In this document: in pieces, positions 21,063 through 36,547 of the stretch
Numbering within the stretch: position 1 is the stretch's first letter
Layout: every line of letters begins with the position of its first letter
Assembly: GCA_030698575.1 (NCBI GenBank)
Contig: JAUYMQ010000519.1
Coordinates: forward strand, 1 to 43,151
DNA length: 43,151 nt
Source: Deltaproteobacteria bacterium
Lineage (GTDB): Bacteria; JAUYMQ01
Reading direction: 5' to 3'
The notes under the pieces: generated by a model
The model's database searches: none
Told to the model about the DNA's origin: nothing
What the model saw: the letters and a program-made list of their open reading frames with translations, nothing else
Translations under genes and position numbers: made by a program

Positions 21063-23267
21063 GTGCGCGTGACCAAAACTAAACTCGACCACGCTCTCGA
21101 ATTGGCGGCGCAGGGCTTCTACGTTTTCCCCATCGTGGCGGGGAAGAAGGCCCCGCCCTATTTTAAGGAGTGGCAGAAAATTGCAACAAGAGACACCACT
21201 ATTTTAAGGGACTGGTGGGCGAGTCGTGATTTCAACATCGGCATTTCAACGTCCACTTTCGCGGAGGGGCAAGCCCTCCTTGTCGTGGACGTGGACAATA
21301 AAGGAGACAAGCATGGAGATGAAACCCTGCTGCGGCTTGAACTTGAAGGTCGGGAACTGCCCCGCACTTACTGTCAGCTTACGCCAACGGGCGGTCGGCA
21401 TCTTGTATATCGATGTGACACACCCGTGCGCCAAGGCGCAAACGTACTCGGTTCGGGGCTCGATATCCGAAGCCGGGGTGGCTACATTGTCGCTGCGGGA
21501 AGCCAGGTTCCCGTCGGAACCTACGTGGTGGGACTGCCCGGAGACGTTTCGCGCGCGCCTGCATGGCTCATTGACCGATGCGGTCGGCCCCGCGAACGGG
21601 TTCGGCAAAATCAGCCTGCCCCCGCCGGAGTAGACGCCGCGAGTGCAATCGCGCGCGCCAAACACTACCTCGAGTACGAGGCACCTCTGGCCGTTGAAGG
21701 ACAAGGGGGCGACGAGACGACGTACAAAGTCGCTGCGCGGCTGAAGGACTTTGGCGTGTCCCTCGATTGCGCTGACGATTTGATGGCTTTGCACTGGAAT
21801 CCTCGCTGCTCTCCCCCGTGGGATCCTGACCCGATGTTCGAAAAGGTCAAAAACGCCTACGCCTACGGGCAGGATCCGCCGGGGGTCGCTGCGCCCGAAG
21901 CGGTGTTTCCCCTCGTAGACGTGTCACAAAAAGACCCCCAAATTGAGGGCAAGATCACGTCCAAAACCCACCCTTTCGACAAACTGAATCAGGAATTCGC
22001 CTTCACTATCGCTGGCGGCGGGTCGCACATCTTGTGGGAAACAACCGACGCCAAGGACCGGCCAGTGTTGCAGCACCTTGACACCGGCACGTTCCACAAA
22101 AAGCATGCCGCGTGGAAGATGAACTTGGGAAAGCGCGACGAGCCTGTGACCGAGCTCTGGATGCAGGCGCCCCGGCGGCGCAGCTACGACGGCCTGGTTT
22201 TCATGCCGGCGCAGAAAGCACCCACCCGATTCTACAACCTTTTTCGAGGATTCGCATATGAACCTGCCAGCCACCGATACGAGTCTCACCCCGCCGTCGA
22301 AGCCTGGTTGGAGCATGCCCGAGTTAACATCTGTCGAAATGACGGCGCGCTATTCCGATGGTTCGTCGGGTACTTTGCACATTTGGTTCAACGCCCCTGG
22401 GAAAAACCCCTCGTGGCACTGGTGCTTCGCGGGGGCAAAGGAGTTGGAAAGAATGCCGTCATCGAAAGAATTGGCGCTCTTCTCGGCGGCCATTTCCTAC
22501 TGTCGTCGAATCGTCGGTATCTAGTCGGCAACTTCAACGGGCATCTGGAAAACTTGCTCCTGTTCGCGCTTGATGAAGCGTTCTGGTCGGGCGACAAGCA
22601 GGCCGAGGGACAACTGAAGGACTTGATCACGGGGAACTGCCATGTCATCGAGCACAAAGGTAAAGAGCCGTACACCGTCGAAAACCGCACCCGCATCGCC
22701 ATCATCGGGAATGAGACATGGCTTGTCCCCTCTACGCACGATGAAAGGCGTTTTGCCGTATTCGATGTGGGTGACGGACGACGGGAAGATCGTGGGTTTT
22801 TTGATTCAATGCGGCGGGATATGGAGACCGGCGGATACAGATCACTGTTGCGTTACCTTCTCGACTTCGATGTTGAAGGACTTGATTTCAGCCACGCCCC
22901 CAGCACGACCGGCTTGCTTGAGCAAAAGCACGCCAGCCTCGAACCGCTCGAGCAATGGTGGCTCGATTGCCTTACCGAAGGACGAATTGTGGCGGGCGAT
23001 TTCGCACACACCTTTGGGGCGCAGGTTGAGTGCGAACGTTTCCGGCAAGCGTTCCGGCGTTACGCGCGGGACCGCAATATCCGCAGCCGAATTGTTGATG
23101 ACAAAACCTTCGGTCGAATCATGAAGAAGGTGTGCCCGATCATCGTGCCAGGCAGGATGCGCGAAGCCGGGGCGCTGATAAACACCTACCGCCTGCCGTT
23201 GCTGAAAGAAGCGCGGGCGTGCTGGGACACATTCATTGGCCATAAGGTGGAGTGGCCCGCGGAGTGA
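21063..23267 (+). CDS. Bifunctional primase-polymerase / P4- or D5-type helicase
   Basis: ORF track, 734 aa. The N-terminus is prim-pol-like (GFYVFPI..LVVDVDNK..GGRHLVYR). Walker A is LRGGKGVGKN and Walker B is LLFALDEAFW. Confidence 0.85.
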   Translation: MRVTKTKLDHALELAAQGFYVFPIVAGKKAPPYFKEWQKIATRDTTILRDWWASRDFNIGISTSTFAEGQALLVVDVDNKGDKHGDETLLRLELEGRELPRTYCQLTPTGGRHLVYRCDTPVRQGANVLGSGLDIRSRGGYIVAAGSQVPVGTYVVGLPGDVSRAPAWLIDRCGRPRERVRQNQPAPAGVDAASAIARAKHYLEYEAPLAVEGQGGDETTYKVAARLKDFGVSLDCADDLMALHWNPRCSPPWDPDPMFEKVKNAYAYGQDPPGVAAPEAVFPLVDVSQKDPQIEGKITSKTHPFDKLNQEFAFTIAGGGSHILWETTDAKDRPVLQHLDTGTFHKKHAAWKMNLGKRDEPVTELWMQAPRRRSYDGLVFMPAQKAPTRFYNLFRGFAYEPASHRYESHPAVEAWLEHARVNICRNDGALFRWFVGYFAHLVQRPWEKPLVALVLRGGKGVGKNAVIERIGALLGGHFLLSSNRRYLVGNFNGHLENLLLFALDEAFWSGDKQAEGQLKDLITGNCHVIEHKGKEPYTVENRTRIAIIGNETWLVPSTHDERRFAVFDVGDGRREDRGFFDSMRRDMETGGYRSLLRYLLDFDVEGLDFSHAPSTTGLLEQKHASLEPLEQWWLDCLTEGRIVAGDFAHTFGAQVECERFRQAFRRYARDRNIRSRIVDDKTFGRIMKKVCPIIVPGRMREAGALINTYRLPLLKEARACWDTFIGHKVEWPAE

Positions 23268-24382
23268 GCCACCGGGCGTACTACAACGAGATCGATCCTT
23301 ATGCGGCCGAGTGGTTGCGAAATCTCATGCGCGAGGGATTAATCGCGCCGGGGGATGTTGATGAAAGATCCATCCGACAACTACACCCGATCGATCTTAT
23401 CGGGTACACCCAATGTCACTTCTTCGCAGGAATCGGCGTCTGGTCCTACACGCTCAGGCTCGCTGGTTGGCCCGACGACCGCCCCGTTTGGACCGGCTCT
23501 TGCCCCTGCCAGCCGTTCAGCGCGGCGGGGAAAGGGAAAGGTGCCGCCGACGCCCGGCATCTGTGGCCTGAGTGGTTCCGGCTCATACGAGAGCATCGCC
23601 CTGTCGCAATCTTTGGCGAGCAGGTTAGCGCCGCGATTCGTCACGGCTGGCTCGACCTTGTTTCAGCAGACCTGGAAGGTCTTGACTACGCCATCGGGGC
23701 GACAGTTATGGGCGCACACAGCGTCGGGGCGCCGCACATCCGGCAGCGGCTTTACTTCGTGGCCGACTCCCAATGTGCCGAACGGCGGTCGATCGATCAC
23801 GCACGCGGAAACGAAGGGCAACACGGCATATTTCAACGGGAAGAAAGTGCAGATCGGATTGGAAGCCGTATCGAAACTAGCATCGGGGCCGACGCCATGC
23901 CAGCAGGACGGCCCGAACGGCGGCCCGGCGCAAGGGACGGACAGACTACCGGGAGCGGCTGCGCTTGCCGGCTGGAACACGCCCACGGCGCCGGTAAAGA
24001 CGAACGGCCACCAAGCGGGCAACAATCGCTTTGTGACGAACACGGTGCGTGCGGTGTCGCCCAGGGCGACACCGAGCAGCCGGGATTGGAAGGACACGGC
24101 GGGCATGGCGTTGACGGGAACCAACCCGGACGGATCAGAGCGCATGAGGCTGGATCAATTGGCGCGGCAGGCGCAGTTGGCGGATTCTGGCGAGACGCCG
24201 ACTGGATTTACTGCCGAGGATTCGGAACCATCCCGCCCAGTTACCGACCCGTTGAGCCCGGATCATTCCCGCTGGTTGCAGGGATTGCCGCCAGAATGGA
24301 CAAGCTGCGCGCCTTTGGAAACTGCATCGTTGCTCCGCAAGCAACGGAGTTCGTCCGAGCCTACTGCGGCGTGACGGATTAG
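23252..24382 (+). CDS. DNA (cytosine-5)-methyltransferase, frame-0 ORF (the central ~420 nt looks non-coding in this frame)
   Basis: ORF track, 376 aa. Motifs seen: GSCPCQPFSAAGK (IV), IFGEQV (VI), APHIRQRLYFVA (VIII) and LRAFGNCIVAPQ (X). Between 23765 and 24190 the translation is low-complexity R/G/E/H text with lower GC3. Confidence 0.7.
   Translation: MARGVSHRAYYNEIDPYAAEWLRNLMREGLIAPGDVDERSIRQLHPIDLIGYTQCHFFAGIGVWSYTLRLAGWPDDRPVWTGSCPCQPFSAAGKGKGAADARHLWPEWFRLIREHRPVAIFGEQVSAAIRHGWLDLVSADLEGLDYAIGATVMGAHSVGAPHIRQRLYFVADSQCAERRSIDHARGNEGQHGIFQREESADRIGSRIETSIGADAMPAGRPERRPGARDGQTTGSGCACRLEHAHGAGKDERPPSGQQSLCDEHGACGVAQGDTEQPGLEGHGGHGVDGNQPGRIRAHEAGSIGAAGAVGGFWRDADWIYCRGFGTIPPSYRPVEPGSFPLVAGIAARMDKLRAFGNCIVAPQATEFVRAYCGVTD
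23760..24374 (+). CDS. +1-frame segment of the methyltransferase locus with WPTP-type repeats and RWLQGLPPEW; its status is unresolved
   Basis: This is part of track ORF 23355..24374. It reads SWPTPNVPNGGRS, SGPTPCQQDGPNGG, AGWNTPTAP, ATPSSRDWKD, RLDQLARQAQLA and SPDHSRWLQGLPPEW. By hand count, GC3 here is about 72-77%, against 50-61% for frame 0. Confidence 0.5.
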   Translation, partial: WPTPNVPNGGRSITHAETKGNTAYFNGKKVQIGLEAVSKLASGPTPCQQDGPNGGPAQGTDRLPGAAALAGWNTPTAPVKTNGHQAGNNRFVTNTVRAVSPRATPSSRDWKDTAGMALTGTNPDGSERMRLDQLARQAQLADSGETPTGFTAEDSEPSRPVTDPLSPDHSRWLQGLPPEWTSCAPLETASLLRKQRSSSEPTAA

Positions 24383-24418: not shown

Positions 24419-24468
24419 TGGTAGGCGGTGGGGGACTCGAACCCCCGACCAACGGATTAAAAGTCAGG
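24419..24468 (-). other. tRNA 3-prime-half-like segment (anticodon-loop-like, T-arm, acceptor 3-prime strand, CCA); putative attP core
   Basis: The minus strand reads ..CTTTTAATCCGTTGGTCGGGGGTTCGAGTCCCCCACCGCCTACCA. The T-arm is GGGGG-TTCGAGT-CCCCC. No matching 5-prime acceptor strand (AGGCGGT) or D-arm lies upstream. The integrase gene is about 0.9 kb away. Confidence 0.7.
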
Positions 24469-24600
24469 TGTTGTGCTTTCCGCATCAACCACTTGCGAAA
24501 GGGCTTGCGGAGAAAGTGATATTGCGTTACGGTAGTAACTGCGTGTTGTGAAAAGCAAAACGGTGAAATCGAAAAACTGCTACCCAGGAGCGACCTGACC

Positions 24601-25159: not shown

Positions 25160-25383
25160 TATTCCCGTGCAGCGTATTCGGAAATCTATGGAGAGCATGC
25201 TTATCATTCCCTGCGGCCCACGTAGCGTGAATGTATGCATTTCTCTCGTGGCTCGCCGGGAAGCACGGAAGGCGCATCGCGACATGCTGCTGTTCGGGAC
25301 GGGCGTCGTGTGGTGCCCTAATGACGGTGGCGATCCAAAGCACATCCCAATCGAGGAATTTCAGTGGCCGGTCGGGGTGTCCC

Positions 25384-26526
25384 GTGGCGACTAAAACACT
25401 GACGGACTCCGCGATCAAGGCGCTTTCACCAGGAGAAACGGTATGGGACAAGGCGGTGGCGGGGCTGCACGTGCGCGCCAGCAAGACGGCGAAAAGTTTC
25501 TACCTCTTTTTCCGCACCAAGGCGGGCGTCTCGAGGCGGCCGAAGCTGGGTGGCACCCGTATCTTGACCATCGCGCAAGCGCGCGAGATCGCCCGGGCGC
25601 ACCTGGCAGCGGTGTCGGCCGGCCAGGATCCGGTGGCGGAACAACGGCAATCTCGGGGCGAGCCGACGGTATCGGTGTTTTTCGAGAGGTGCTGGCGTGA
25701 GCACTGGTCGTGCAAGAAGGATGCTCGGAATGTACGACGACTCTACGAGAGTCGTGTTGCCCCCCGGCTCGGTCATCAACGAGTGCGTGAACTATGTTAC
25801 CGCGACATCGCTGGGCTTCATTCTGCGCTTGCAGCTACCCCCGTCGAGGCCAACCGGACTCTTGCTTTGCTCAGCAAACTGCTCAATCTGGCCGAGCGAT
25901 ACGGTGAACGAAATCTTGGTACAAATCCCTGCCGACATGTACCCCGATACCCTGAACTGAGCCGGCGGCGCTTCGCCACGGTCGACGAGCTCGCCCGTCT
26001 CGGTCCCCTGCTCGACGCATCGTGGGCTGTCCTGCCCGATTCCGTGGCCTTCATCGGCCTTATGGTGTTCACAGGGATGCGCCCGGGCGAGGTGGAGGCG
26101 GGCCGGCGGGAGTGGATTCACGACACCATCCTGCGCCTTCCCGACAGCAAAACAGGGCAGCGCGACATATACCTGCCCCCACAAGCCTTAGCGATTCTCG
26201 AGCGGTTGCCGGCGCCACCCAAAGCGCCTGACGGGTTGATCCCGCTGGTGGGCGTCAAATATCCCCGGACGCTGTGGGAACGGTTAAGGGACGCAGCAAA
26301 GTGCCCGGATTTGCGGCTATACGACCTGCGGCGCACCTTCGCCACGGTGAGCCTGGCCGGGGGCACATCCATCAGTCTGATCGGGGAAATGCTGGGGCAC
26401 AAGACGGCCCAAACCACGAAGGTCTATGCGCGCCTCATGAGTCAGGCAGCACAGGGGGTGGCGGCGGACACCGGGCAGCGGATGCAGGGACTACTTGGCG
26501 GCCCAGATAAACCCGACATTGGCTAG
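25384..26526 (+). CDS. int: Tyrosine integrase (P4-like)
   Basis: Track ORF 25231..26526, taking the GTG at 25384 (VATKTLTDSAIKALSPGE.. matches the usual N-terminus). Catalytic-region motifs: FTGMRPGE, LYDLRRTFAT and LGHKTAQTTKVYARL. Confidence 0.88.
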   Translation: MATKTLTDSAIKALSPGETVWDKAVAGLHVRASKTAKSFYLFFRTKAGVSRRPKLGGTRILTIAQAREIARAHLAAVSAGQDPVAEQRQSRGEPTVSVFFERCWREHWSCKKDARNVRRLYESRVAPRLGHQRVRELCYRDIAGLHSALAATPVEANRTLALLSKLLNLAERYGERNLGTNPCRHVPRYPELSRRRFATVDELARLGPLLDASWAVLPDSVAFIGLMVFTGMRPGEVEAGRREWIHDTILRLPDSKTGQRDIYLPPQALAILERLPAPPKAPDGLIPLVGVKYPRTLWERLRDAAKCPDLRLYDLRRTFATVSLAGGTSISLIGEMLGHKTAQTTKVYARLMSQAAQGVAADTGQRMQGLLGGPDKPDIG

Positions 26527-32938: not shown

Positions 32939-35900
32939 TCAGGGAGCGGACGAACGCAGCATTTCCTTGCCGGCCTTCGCCAACTCGATCATCTGAAAAT
33001 ACAATGTATCAATGAGTTGCCGCTGCTCTTCCGCGGGAATATCCGGGTTTTTATTGACCAACCGGATCGACTGACTGATGACCCCCAGCGAGTCCACGAT
33101 ATCGTCAAGTTGGACAAACAAATCGGGGTCAATCTTCTGAATGCGGTCCAGCGCGTCCATGTCCCCTTTTTCGGCGGCGTGCATGTATGTGTCGAACACC
33201 TTTTTGCGCGCCGTGTAGTCGTCGTAGAAGGTCTGGATCGACGCTGCTGTTGCGGACGGATAACGCACCACGAACGCCTTTACCACTGGAATGTCGGCCA
33301 GCGTCGCCAGTGGCTTCACCGGGTCCGGCAGCACCCCTGTCTCGCGCAGCCCCTTGTCCAAAAGCTGAACGACGTAGCTGCCCAAGCCCCCGGTCCATCC
33401 GCGAATATAGTTATCGAGCAAAGCCGGCGACGTGATGGCCCGCGCCACACCCCCGGTAATCATCGCCTCTTCGTCCAGGGACCGCGGGACCACGCCGGGA
33501 ATTCGCCCGATCAGGCCCCCAACGGCCTTCGTGAGTTCGGTCGTGTAGTCGTTGTACTGATACTCGCCCAGCAGCCGCTCCTTGCTGTAGGGGATGATCG
33601 GGTTGCCGGTGAACATGCTGCGGTTGGCGAACTGGTCGATGATCGGCGAAATGAACGTCGGCACGAACGACAAGCCGAACACCTGCTCAAATGCGTCGTC
33701 CATCCGGCGCAGCGCGTCGGGGTTGTCCGTGAAAAACGATTCCAGCAGCCGCTCGGGTATGGTCCCAAACAGGACGCCGATCTCAAACGGCTTCGGGACT
33801 CGGTATACGGTGTCATCCGTCATCACGATCCAAAACAGGTCTTTCTGCCACTGCGGAATCTCGCGCCAACGCGGATCTTCGTGGTTGGCCCACCACAGCA
33901 GCACCGACGGCAACGTGATGGACGCAACCGCTTTCCCCGTAAAGTTCAGGGGATTGTCCTTGGCGGCTCGCGCGGTGCGGTCAATCCCCTCAACCCGCGC
34001 ATTCCAGAAGGCGACCAACATGTTCACCGCGCGCGTCTGCGCGCCGATGCGCGCAAAGTCCAGTGTGACTTCCCGCGACTCGAATCCCGCGGCCAGGATA
34101 TCCACCTTGGCTGCGCCCTTGCCGCCGCCCGCTCTCTTGAATTCCCCGACCCGCGTGGCGTTCTCGAACAACTCCGATGCGATGCGCAGCACCTCGATCG
34201 GGGACTTGGCTACGTTCCATCCACGCTCGAACAGTCCGGCGCTTTTGTAGGCGTCCAGACTGAACAGCCGCTCCTGCAGGTAGGCTCGGTCCATCGAAAC
34301 GAGCGTCGCGTTTGCCCCACCCGACTTTAGCCAGTTCTGGTAGGTTTCACCCGATTTGGCGATTTCAGTGACACCGCGAATCGCGTCCAGCACAGGCACG
34401 TACCCGTTCTTGGAGAATATGAACGCCGACAGTTGGTCGCGCGCTACGTTCCGCAGCATGAAGTCGGGCGTCAGCACGGCACCCGCCCGTAGCGTGCGTG
34501 CCGGCGTCGCGAGAATACGCGCCCATATCGGGGCGCTTTCCCGGTCCAAAGCCTTCATAGCCTCGGCCGCCTCAAACGGGACTTCGTAGACTTCCCGCTT
34601 GCCGTCTCGAAACACGGCGATCTGATTGTCCTTGGGGTTGAACGCATTCGCCCGGAACACAGTAAAGGATTCCGCCTGCGCCTCCGTGACCCCGTACTCT
34701 TTCAGAAGCGCCACCACTTCCTTGTCCGTGAGCTCGATCGGTTTGACAGGCGTCTTGACCCGCTGCACCAGGGCTTCGCCTTTCGGGGATTGCTCGGCCA
34801 ATTTAACAAGCGCCAACCCGGCCGCATTGCGTTCCGCGAGTGTCGAGTAGAGATAGGTGTTCTTTATGATGGACTCGATCGGGTCGACAATCGTTCGTTC
34901 CGATCCCCGGATCCCCTTGATGGGGTTGCGCACGGTCATCCCCGCACCGGCGCCCGCCTTGGACTCTCCCGGCTCCATGACCCGGAAGAGCGGCACGTAG
35001 TCCTTGTTCGCTTCCTTGATGACTTCGAAGGCGTCCCGCGACAGCACCCCGGAGTCGCGCAGGAATGTGAGCAGCGAGTCCTGATAGTCCTGCAGTTCCT
35101 TGAACACCGACTCGTACTTTTTACCGGCCTTCACCGTCTCGGCCGCCTCTTTCAGCGGCACGCCAGTTTCGATACCTCGTTTTTGCAATTCCAGCGCGCG
35201 GCGGCTGACTGCATAGGCCCGCATGCCATCGAGATCACTCTTCACAGGGTCAAGCACCTGGCGCAGCCCCTTGCCCACTGTCTTGTAGTCGCCGAATCGG
35301 TACGCCCCGTATTCAAGAAACTGGTCGGCGCGGCCGAACATCCCTCGGGTCAGCCGTGCCAGTTTGTACGGATCCTCAATCGCGGGCAGCTTCTTTCCTT
35401 CGGCCAGTTCATCTACCAACCGGCGGATCGGAAACAGATCGTCCTTGACCTGTGTGTAGAAACGGTCCAGTGTGTAGGCTCGCTCCTTTGGCTGTCCGAC
35501 GCTGATTCGGTCCAACACCGCCTGCTGCGCGGCGACAGGCTCGGCATCCGGCTTCGCTTCCGGCTCCGCGCGCGGGGGCGGCTTCGGCTCCCCGGCGTAC
35601 GCGCGCGGCACCTCGATGTTCTTGGATGCCAAGTCCTGTGAGACGGAAGGCTTTGCCTCTGCGTCCACGACAACCTGCTCCGGTTTCACTCCGAAGCGTT
35701 TGTACCCCTCGCGCAGCTTCGCCGCCCCCTTAACTGCACCCTTCGCGCCGACCAGGATCACGGCAGCGTCCACAAAATCAGTTGCCTTCGGAACTTCCCC
35801 TTCAAGCGCGCTGCCCACCGTAACAAGGGTTGTGACTTCGCTGCCCAACACCGCAGCGCCTCGCACCACGGAAGGCAACGGCTTCGCCAGCTGCGCGACC

Positions 35901-36547
35901 TTGCCCCCGACCGCTCCCGTTGCGGCACCCGTGATCCACGCCTTGCTAGTATCCCACAGGACGCCAGCAGTGCGCTCCCAAAAATCCCCAAAGCTGGTGA
36001 ACTCCCCCTTTTCGTAGGCGTCCATCAGCGTCGCACGCAATCCGGCGGGCAGCGCAAACGCGCCCCCCACGGCTGTTGCCAAAGCCAGCGGACCTCCGGG
36101 TGCGCCGCCCGCACCGCCCAGCAGCGCACCCACGACCATCGCGGGTGCGTCCCCTGCCAATGTACTCGCGTTCGACGTAATCCGCTGCGCCATGCCCGCA
36201 TCCTCGGGCATCACAACGTCGGGAGCCTCGCCCCGAGCGACCAGACCGGAAACTGAAATCTGTAGCCCCGCCTCGATCGCGTCCAACATCGTGCGCGCGG
36301 TGCGCGGGCCGTCGGTCTGCTTTGCGTCCTCGGCCGCCAGATTCTCCCGAATGAGTTGCCGCACCGGCTCCATGTTCGGCTCCGGCTGCCCGAACCACAC
36401 GTTTATATCGGCGTCGGCAAACCCGGCGGCCTGCATCTTGGCACGCTCGGATTGCTGCCACTGACCGACTTCCTCTTGCGTGAACCCGGCATCCAACATT
36501 GTGCGCGTTTCAGTGAGCCCGCTCACAGGCCGGTCCTTTTCTTCCAC
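32939..36547 (-). CDS. Large virion/internal (ejection-type) protein, 1202 aa
   Basis: ORF track. Position between the smaller internal proteins and the tailspike. It has a Gly/Ala hydrophobic segment near residue 130-240. I recognised no catalytic motif. The start is uncertain (GTG 36547 or ATG 36499). Confidence 0.7.
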   Translation of the reverse strand: MEEKDRPVSGLTETRTMLDAGFTQEEVGQWQQSERAKMQAAGFADADINVWFGQPEPNMEPVRQLIRENLAAEDAKQTDGPRTARTMLDAIEAGLQISVSGLVARGEAPDVVMPEDAGMAQRITSNASTLAGDAPAMVVGALLGGAGGAPGGPLALATAVGGAFALPAGLRATLMDAYEKGEFTSFGDFWERTAGVLWDTSKAWITGAATGAVGGKVAQLAKPLPSVVRGAAVLGSEVTTLVTVGSALEGEVPKATDFVDAAVILVGAKGAVKGAAKLREGYKRFGVKPEQVVVDAEAKPSVSQDLASKNIEVPRAYAGEPKPPPRAEPEAKPDAEPVAAQQAVLDRISVGQPKERAYTLDRFYTQVKDDLFPIRRLVDELAEGKKLPAIEDPYKLARLTRGMFGRADQFLEYGAYRFGDYKTVGKGLRQVLDPVKSDLDGMRAYAVSRRALELQKRGIETGVPLKEAAETVKAGKKYESVFKELQDYQDSLLTFLRDSGVLSRDAFEVIKEANKDYVPLFRVMEPGESKAGAGAGMTVRNPIKGIRGSERTIVDPIESIIKNTYLYSTLAERNAAGLALVKLAEQSPKGEALVQRVKTPVKPIELTDKEVVALLKEYGVTEAQAESFTVFRANAFNPKDNQIAVFRDGKREVYEVPFEAAEAMKALDRESAPIWARILATPARTLRAGAVLTPDFMLRNVARDQLSAFIFSKNGYVPVLDAIRGVTEIAKSGETYQNWLKSGGANATLVSMDRAYLQERLFSLDAYKSAGLFERGWNVAKSPIEVLRIASELFENATRVGEFKRAGGGKGAAKVDILAAGFESREVTLDFARIGAQTRAVNMLVAFWNARVEGIDRTARAAKDNPLNFTGKAVASITLPSVLLWWANHEDPRWREIPQWQKDLFWIVMTDDTVYRVPKPFEIGVLFGTIPERLLESFFTDNPDALRRMDDAFEQVFGLSFVPTFISPIIDQFANRSMFTGNPIIPYSKERLLGEYQYNDYTTELTKAVGGLIGRIPGVVPRSLDEEAMITGGVARAITSPALLDNYIRGWTGGLGSYVVQLLDKGLRETGVLPDPVKPLATLADIPVVKAFVVRYPSATAASIQTFYDDYTARKKVFDTYMHAAEKGDMDALDRIQKIDPDLFVQLDDIVDSLGVISQSIRLVNKNPDIPAEEQRQLIDTLYFQMIELAKAGKEMLRSSAP

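Follow-up and report, generated by a model that had tools for sequence, protein, structure and literature searches.

The gene at positions 23252-24382 (forward strand) of contig JAUYMQ010000519.1, assembled from a Deltaproteobacteria bacterium, was analyzed within the full 43,151-nucleotide stretch, here called the window. About 1 kb of this phage DNA is covered by two same-strand, out-of-frame open reading frames (ORFs), termed alpha (frame 0) and beta (frame +1), between which the motifs of a DNA (cytosine-5) methyltransferase (C5-methyltransferase) are divided. Both frames exist, are conserved, are kept open and carry their respective motifs, and beta has start signals. On the basis of the sequence comparisons, it is close to certain that the locus represents a conserved dual-coding gene pair. 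The best explanation, which we consider highly probable, is a nested two-polypeptide C5-methyltransferase, and a strong inference makes it quite probable that the two products form one enzyme. The features of the locus, all on the forward strand, are as follows.

23252-24382, +: alpha ORF, frame 0; 376 residues from GTG 23252, no internal stop
23279-23764, +: predicted alpha catalytic (large) domain; predicted local distance difference test (pLDDT) score above 90; hhalign match to M.HhaI at 2.9e-13
23349-23363, +: probable initiation region of beta; GGGGGA followed by ATGTTG and ATG
23361-24374, +: beta ORF, frame +1; 337 residues from ATG 23361, or 339 from ATG 23355; wholly within alpha
23511-23756, +: first doubly constrained stretch; beta N-terminal conserved region over alpha motifs IV-VIII
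23757-24095, +: four WxTP units (SWPTP, SGPTP, GWNTP, RATPSSRDWKD); candidate target-recognition part
23765-24184, +: alpha linker; stop-free, amino acid identity 0.17, residues 197-310 with pLDDT below 50
24185-24340, +: conserved C-terminal part of alpha; hairpin FWRDADW...RPVEPGSFPLVAG followed by motif X LRAFGNCIVAPQ with its helix
24252-24299, +: beta motif IX-like segment LSPDHSRWLQGLPPEW, placed by pattern and hhalign position

Beta starts approximately 36 codons into alpha and ends 8 nt ahead of the alpha stop. Frame +1 is without stops from 23343 to 24371, with ATG codons at 23355 and 23361 and a stop codon at 24372-24374, and the third frame has five stops over the alpha linker stretch. 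The GC content of the gene is 63%. An earlier note on this DNA, made from the letters alone, had described C5-methyltransferase motifs split between two overlapping frames, and all of its quoted strings and coordinates proved correct. Frame 0 carries PCQ at 23504-23512, IFGEQV at 23609-23626, GAPHIRQRLYFVA ending at 23764 and GN at 24317. Frame +1 carries SWPTP at 23757-23771, SGPTP at 23883-23897, GWNTP at 23970-23984 and RATPSSRDWKD at 24063-24095, followed farther 3' by RLDQLARQAQLA at 24147-24182 and SRWLQGLPPEW ending at 24299. Over 23765-24190, third codon positions have a GC content of 0.58 when read in frame 0 and of 0.75 when read in frame +1, inside the ranges that had been counted by hand.

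The conservation of this layout was examined in 167 homologous loci, comprising 87 phage or IMG/VR loci and 80 loci from species-representative bacterial and archaeal genomes. The impression that the arrangement recurs in homologues was borne out, as the identical two-frame layout was present in all 167 diverged loci. It spans hosts from Enterobacteriaceae, Burkholderiales and Rhodobacter to Acidobacteria and Planctomycetota at 40-55% protein identity. Alpha and beta are open together in all but three loci, and each exception is a single nonsense codon in alpha. Within the phage and IMG/VR set, alpha is intact in 84/87 and every one of the 87 loci has a beta frame open over 230 codons or more, with a median open length of 41 codons for the third frame. 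The genome set, which is independent and includes Enterobacterales, Pseudomonas, Burkholderiales, Alphaproteobacteria, Acidobacteria, Planctomycetota and Nitrospira, has beta open for at least 200 codons in 80/80. The further suggestion that a WxTP pattern in frame +1 and a "LAD-type" pattern in frame 0 both occur in homologues held for the first part; the middle of frame 0 does not form a second conserved pattern of the LAD type and is an unconserved linker, predicted to be disordered, in which only the freedom from stops is maintained.

Annotated phages provide additional examples of the pair. A tblastn search with the middle peptide of frame +1 matched 60 phage records, and the annotated methyltransferase coding sequence of Erwinia phage vB_EhrS_59, Rhodobacter phage RcSalem and a Klebsiella record contains the match in its +1 frame. 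Phage homologues N15 gp58, epsilon15 cytosine methylase, K1G/K1H ORF28+ORF29 and BcepC6B gp33 (PHROGs 363 and 1008) belong to the same family and have the same two-frame layout. The second ORF has already been seen by annotators (K1H, K1G; "putative Mte8-like protein"), and the GenBank record of phage K1H lists both products, ORF29 as "C-specific methylase" and the nested +1 ORF28 as "Mte8-like protein; similar to Bcep6B, N15 and e15". The label "Mte8" could be traced to one phage-genome paper, which does not explain it. In Burkholderia phage vB_E354 (L008, PQ789824.1 35547-36764) and its relatives, the beta frame is the only one annotated, as "putative metabolic enzyme", and alpha (452 open codons) is unannotated; records in the style of the Prokaryotic Genome Annotation Pipeline call alpha alone. 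A megablast search of GenBank phages returned no close relative of the 20 kb around the gene, and the genome scan returned no alpha relative above approximately 52% full-length identity.

Some members of the family depart from the standard form. Three IMG/VR loci have one nonsense codon each in alpha with beta open, namely L024 and L028 (motif I reading GIGV*SY, Trp to TGA) and L061 (PC*PFS, Gln to TAG), and these could reflect inactivation of the methyltransferase, sequence variation or suppression of the stops. In a Logan contig (L089, SRR9952630, approximately 900-1470), an insertion of about 190 codons separates alpha motif VI from GWLDLV. Read in the beta frame, this insertion codes for an HNH-endonuclease-like segment (CRLCG...SLDRINSDCGYTTENV...), and the alpha frame is stop-free throughout it.

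Selection on the two frames was evaluated in 68 non-redundant loci (below 85% nucleotide identity) using an alpha codon alignment, in which the mean pairwise identity was calculated at the alpha third codon position, corresponding to the second position of beta. The statistics are pairwise and not tree-based, and codon usage was taken from flanking ORFs. Alpha wobble identity is 0.44 over residues 10-87, where alpha alone is conserved, and 0.60 over residues 88-171, where the N-terminal part of beta overlies motifs IV-VIII. It reaches 0.74 over residues 306-355, the C-terminal overlap (24185-24310) that forms the second doubly constrained stretch, and is 0.39 past GN, beyond the conserved part of beta. 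Mann-Whitney p values for the wobble comparisons were 2e-6, 5e-13 and 5e-9, the first for 0.60 versus 0.44 and the last for 0.39 versus 0.74. Alpha wobble positions become conserved precisely where beta is conserved, and even in four-fold degenerate alpha codons, such as that of Pro117, the third base is essentially invariant. In the linker, where alpha has the low amino acid identity given above, the WxTP units show the codon pattern of the beta frame, with identities of 0.7-1.0 at positions 1 and 2 and approximately 0.3 at position 3.

Both frames also avoid stop codons. Across the linker, 68/68 loci have an alpha frame uninterrupted by stops, compared to 4.0 expected when beta codons are permuted and 0.6 expected from synonymous resampling. 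Conversely, 66 of the 68 loci have no stop in the beta frame across alpha residues 45-171, compared to 4.7 expected from synonymous resampling of alpha, and the +2 control over the same residues was open in none, with 0.6 expected. For this window alone, the chance of frame 0 being open through the linker given that +1 is coding is 0.08 (permuted) or 0.0075 (synonymous resampling). Stop avoidance in both directions argues that alpha is translated through the linker, though its sequence there does not appear to matter, and that beta is translated from far 5' of the WPTP motif.

Alpha resembles the large domain of C5-methyltransferases. Its motif set comprises a motif II-like YYNEIDPYAAE, motif I CHFFAGIG, motif IV GSCPCQPFS, motif VI IFGEQV, motif VIII GAPHIRQRLYF and motif X LRAFGNCIV, and FFAGIG, GSCPCQPFS, FGEQV and PHIRQRLYF are invariant or almost so across 98 homologues. 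When the frames were searched with the C5-methyltransferase family model, PF00145 matched frame 0 only, with 62.6 bits (cutoff 22) over residues 80-174, which hold motifs IV-VIII; the full-length TIGR00675 model scored 47.9 against alpha, under its cutoff of 100.65. Frame 0 matched phrog_363 at E = 3.9e-77. The similarity to M.HhaI covers motifs IV-VIII by sequence (1.3e-10) and motifs I-VIII by profile alignment, and a Foldseek search with the alpha model returned M.HhaI on top (6e-8), then DNMT1, M.HaeIII and others. AlphaFold2 (AF2) modeled residues 1-190 of alpha with pLDDT above 90, in a predicted class I methyltransferase fold like that of the C5-methyltransferase large domain; residues 197-310 are below 50, and a hairpin (317-334) and the motif X helix (348-375) are again confident.

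The region following motif VIII differs from that of a complete single-chain enzyme. No conserved or ordered target-recognition domain or motif IX was found in alpha after motif VIII, and motif X alone is present. The linker, to which the peptide SIDHARGNEGQHGIFQR belongs, is approximately 130 residues long. The last 65 residues, FWRDADW...GNCIVAPQ, are the sole part through which the second half of frame 0 matches 193 records by tblastn. On the basis of the AF2 confidence pattern and the M.HhaI matches, alpha is modeled as a large domain that is complete, the position of the small domain being taken by a disordered tether.

Two further observations concern the N-terminal part of alpha. A database gene call (P0121) begins alpha at GTG 23264 (372 residues), and the upstream primase/helicase ORF (21063-23267) ends in a TGA that overlaps this codon as GTGA, which suggests translational coupling and an alpha start at 23264 rather than 23252. 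The segment YYNEIDPYAAE (23279-23311) resembles M.HhaI motif II YSNEWDKYAQE (residues 37-47), a weak match from a single comparison (E = 0.017). It precedes motif I FFAGIG (23414-23446), and no motif was found between I and IV. The motif order of the family may therefore be permuted, II-(III)-I-IV, and such a permutation, if real, would explain why the PF00145 match is confined to motifs IV-VIII.

Beta is a large family of its own. Its conserved parts comprise a helix and hairpin (SAALQSSL.SRL...GSTLYKLTWK..TPSGR...AS.RRTS), LAGWPTP.a.D..G units numbering from 1 to approximately 8 per homologue, and a C-terminal LNPAHSRWLMGLPxEW. In the window, the N-terminal conserved strings read SARRGK..., SQSLASRL, GSTLFQQTWK, TTPSGR and ASGRRTSG. 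The helix-hairpin is a probable docking element, and the WxTP units are the probable target-recognition part of beta. The motif IX-like pattern at the C-terminus was found in 86/87 phage and IMG/VR loci and 75/80 genome loci. A word-indexed search identified more than 1133 beta homologues, none with a Pfam domain, and the best match beyond near-identical relatives had E = 2.9e-67 and 48% identity. Among clusters formed at 50% identity, the beta profile matches 27,287, and for 8,933 of these the E value is below 1e-30. Among PHROGs, frame +1 matched phrog_1008 (3.9e-16) and phrog_31772 (5e-13); phrog_363 of frame 0 and the phrog_1008 family of frame +1 are different PHROGs, both labelled methyltransferase. 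Searches of Pfam, NCBIfam and PDB sequences with beta, as single sequence and as profile, gave no match. Foldseek matches of the beta model (cyanase and others) were discarded as meaningless, with E above 0.2 for a low-confidence model.

The beta copy in the window has its own peculiarity. Glycine in SGPTP and arginine in PRATP (24063-24074) replace the WxTP tryptophan, which is 97% conserved in the 68 loci. A relative (P0001) that is 88% identical has SWPTP and PWATP, and two of just six differences over approximately 200 residues strike these tryptophans.

The start of beta is built from conserved alpha codons. The ATG at 23361 is made by the Asp-Glu codons (gAT Gaa) of alpha in PGDVDERSI, which corresponds to PGxVDERSI in the family. 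In 33/68 loci, including this window, the first beta ATG is at this Asp-Glu site, with a G-rich stretch on its 5' side (GGGGGA here). In 20/68 other loci, the first beta ATG is six codons downstream and is preceded at ideal spacing by AAGGAG, itself built from the alpha Glu-Arg-Ser codons GAA-AGG-AGY. Database beta proteins mostly have their first residue at profile position 9 or 15, which is the same six-residue offset.

Two-polypeptide C5-methyltransferases have precedents. In M.EcoHK31I, an Escherichia coli type II enzyme (YGGCCR), the beta polypeptide is encoded wholly within the alpha gene in a different frame; alpha holds motifs I-VIII as well as X, together with the target-recognition domain, beta has motif IX, and association of the chains, mediated by the N-terminus of beta, is needed for activity (PMC2836561; PMC3404938). 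M.AquI also consists naturally of two polypeptides, split in the variable region after motif VIII, with motifs IX and X in the small subunit, and a 2012 paper named M.AquI and M.EcoHK31I as the sole natural two-polypeptide C5-methyltransferases among characterized enzymes (PMC3404938). Although the earlier note had cited M.AquI, M.EcoHK31I is the closest and the only characterized precedent that we found for this layout, sharing with the window the same-strand, out-of-frame nesting and the division of motifs I-VIII and X from IX. In the window, however, beta covers almost all of alpha (337 of 376 codons), and the gene stands as an orphan within a phage replication module and not as part of a restriction-modification pair. 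No database match bore the name M.EcoHK31I. M.AquI is similar in being a two-polypeptide enzyme split after motif VIII, whereas motif X (GN) stays in alpha here and the ORFs overlap by approximately 1 kb; the M.AquI chains reportedly come from adjacent, not nested, genes. Compared to M.HhaI, alpha retains PCQ, the ENV variant GEQV, QxRxR and GN. M.HhaI is nevertheless a single polypeptide with a small domain that alpha does not have, and the weakly matching motif II-like segment of alpha lies ahead of motif I and not after it.

We propose that one transcription unit holds two nested, same-strand, out-of-frame genes, each encoding part of a phage C5-methyltransferase. Alpha would provide the S-adenosylmethionine-binding catalytic large domain with motifs I, IV, VI and VIII, plus motif X close to the C-terminal end, the sequence of its linker being dictated by the beta frame. 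Beta, translated from the internal ATG at 23361, would consist of the helix-hairpin, a variable number of WxTP units and the motif IX-like end. The two chains would associate non-covalently, with the small domain (target recognition and motif IX) given by beta in trans. We infer that both proteins are made, bind each other and are both required for methylation. A broader proposal is an obligate heterodimeric C5-methyltransferase family of approximately 27,000 beta clusters at 50% identity, in which the whole small domain is supplied in trans from +1, the WxTP array of 1 to approximately 8 units is a modular specificity setter, and both proteins are partly overprinted; we regard the chances for and against it as evenly balanced. 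Overprinting would here place the beta helix-hairpin over the alpha catalytic motifs and the alpha C-terminal hairpin over the beta motif IX region.

Several points weigh against the nested two-subunit enzyme. The case for it is built from sequences and models, and the loci are phylogenetically related, so their counts are not fully independent. The AF2 model of beta alone has a mean pLDDT of 61, with only the helix and hairpin (beta residues 76-123) confident; a poor model would be expected for a lone subunit that folds against its partner and DNA, and it proves nothing. Beta has no fold or sequence match among solved methyltransferase small domains. In an hhalign comparison of the beta profile with M.HhaI, only motif IX aligned (residues 269-291, KLHPRECARVMGYPDSY), with an E of 0.21 that is right in position and suggestive, although not significant by itself. 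The proposed role of beta as the small domain is drawn from motif pattern, position and analogy. The analogy is also imperfect, as M.EcoHK31I has its target-recognition domain in alpha, whereas the window has conserved WxTP units in beta, and the likeness is one of architecture, taken from published descriptions. Finally, with two near-invariant tryptophans lost, this beta copy may be impaired or altered in specificity.

Some of these points would fit a beta that is made separately and is no methyltransferase subunit, for example a DNA-binding regulator, an anti-restriction factor or an overprinted protein of the replication module, with alpha methylating alone or with low specificity. Beta has no significant similarity to known domains, its N-terminal two thirds are unlike a classical target-recognition domain, and the conserved alpha C-terminal hairpin (24185-24283) could aid DNA binding. 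However, alpha is without a conserved or ordered segment where the target-recognition domain and motif IX belong, and the end of beta fits the M.HhaI motif IX pattern directly 5' of alpha motif X on the DNA. The presence of alpha with beta in 167/167 loci and the M.EcoHK31I precedent also favor a subunit, and we consider a non-subunit beta unlikely. A shadow ORF, open by chance in GC-rich DNA and conserved only via alpha, has a certain appeal, since long shadow ORFs are common in DNA of 63% GC and part of the beta N-terminus (TSSP.S..G over alpha HFFAGIG) is conserved simply through alpha. Yet beta is best conserved exactly where alpha is not, in the linker and with a beta-frame wobble pattern, and it is open in low-GC members too (N15 52%, L011 51%). 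The excess of open loci over synonymous resampling (66 versus 4.7) and the frozen alpha wobble positions at conserved beta residues refute a non-coding +1 frame and leave it hardly credible.

Of the three explanations offered in the earlier note, the evidence supports the two-polypeptide methyltransferase. Programmed recoding, in which ribosomes would shift from frame 0 to +1 near 23760 and return to frame 0 near 24300, would yield one canonical chain, as the DNA order is motifs I-VIII (frame 0), WxTP and IX (+1) and X (frame 0). The absence of a classic slippery heptamer and the CTT_TAC at 23750-23755 were confirmed in the window, and an X_XXY_YYZ site was found in 0/68 loci where motif VIII meets WPTP and in 3/68 where EW meets GN, with no in-frame stop at either junction on which a ribosome in frame 0 might stall. 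Beta is also open and conserved for approximately 130 codons 5' of the first shift, codons that the frameshift product would not use, and alpha is kept open through a linker that a shifting ribosome would never read. A fused chain would leave approximately 6 residues between EW (IX) and GN (X), compared to 13 in M.HhaI. A hand-made 0/+1/0 chimera scored 233.6 bits against phrog_363, compared to 260.6 for plain frame 0, and was dropped. The conserved starts of beta, with their ATG and Shine-Dalgarno-like signals, and the lack of a conserved slippery heptamer point to two polypeptides rather than a doubly frameshifted chain, so the premise that two shifts are needed is not supported and recoding is very improbable. 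The remaining explanation was a pair of compensating indels in a single-frame dcm-type gene, by pseudogene formation or by sequencing or assembly error. Decay does occur in the family, as in the three alpha nonsense codons (3/87), and otherwise the resemblance to such a gene is superficial. The layout is shared by all 167 loci across distant hosts, in none of which do the WxTP region and the motifs on either side of it share a frame, and purifying selection and stop avoidance act in both frames. The shared layout excludes indels, a pseudogene or an assembly error for practical purposes, and we assign these a negligible probability.

The nested pair closes a phage replication module, with the gene order helicase, exonuclease, DNA polymerase, primase, methyltransferase, tRNA-Lys and integrase. 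No cognate restriction endonuclease was identified among the neighbors (primase/helicase, tRNA-Lys and integrase), although not every ORF of the window was searched for a nuclease. The tRNA-Lys(UUU) gene (24419-24494, reverse strand) lies 37 nt past the methyltransferase stop and is followed by a tyrosine-integrase-type ORF (25231-26526, forward strand; phrog_1, 7e-45), and together they possibly form an attachment-site and integration module. The window may represent a complete temperate podovirus-like genome. In its structural region, a 1202-residue ORF (32939-36547, reverse strand) has a strong match to phrog_9854, whose function is not known, and a weak match over residues 691-933 to phrog_15406, labelled DNA methyltransferase (1e-16). 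This ORF may encode a large protein, either of the virion or ejected, that includes an enzymatic domain.

In the literature searched, no account was found that presents the phage pair as an enzyme of two subunits or its DNA as dual-coding, which is weak evidence, as most subscription journals and REBASE were outside its coverage. If the proposed arrangement is correct, the nested design is no curiosity and is common in phages and prophages of many bacterial phyla, and few same-strand dual-coding regions in phages would be longer or more widespread. The family would also provide a large natural data set on long same-strand overlapping genes, with doubly constrained regions, merely open regions and an HNH-type insertion that respects both frames. 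Gene callers report one ORF of the two, and sometimes the wrong one, and beta, with its approximately 27,000 clusters, is without a Pfam or NCBIfam model. Finally, the variable WxTP array may give a handle on target-site choice by phage enzymes.

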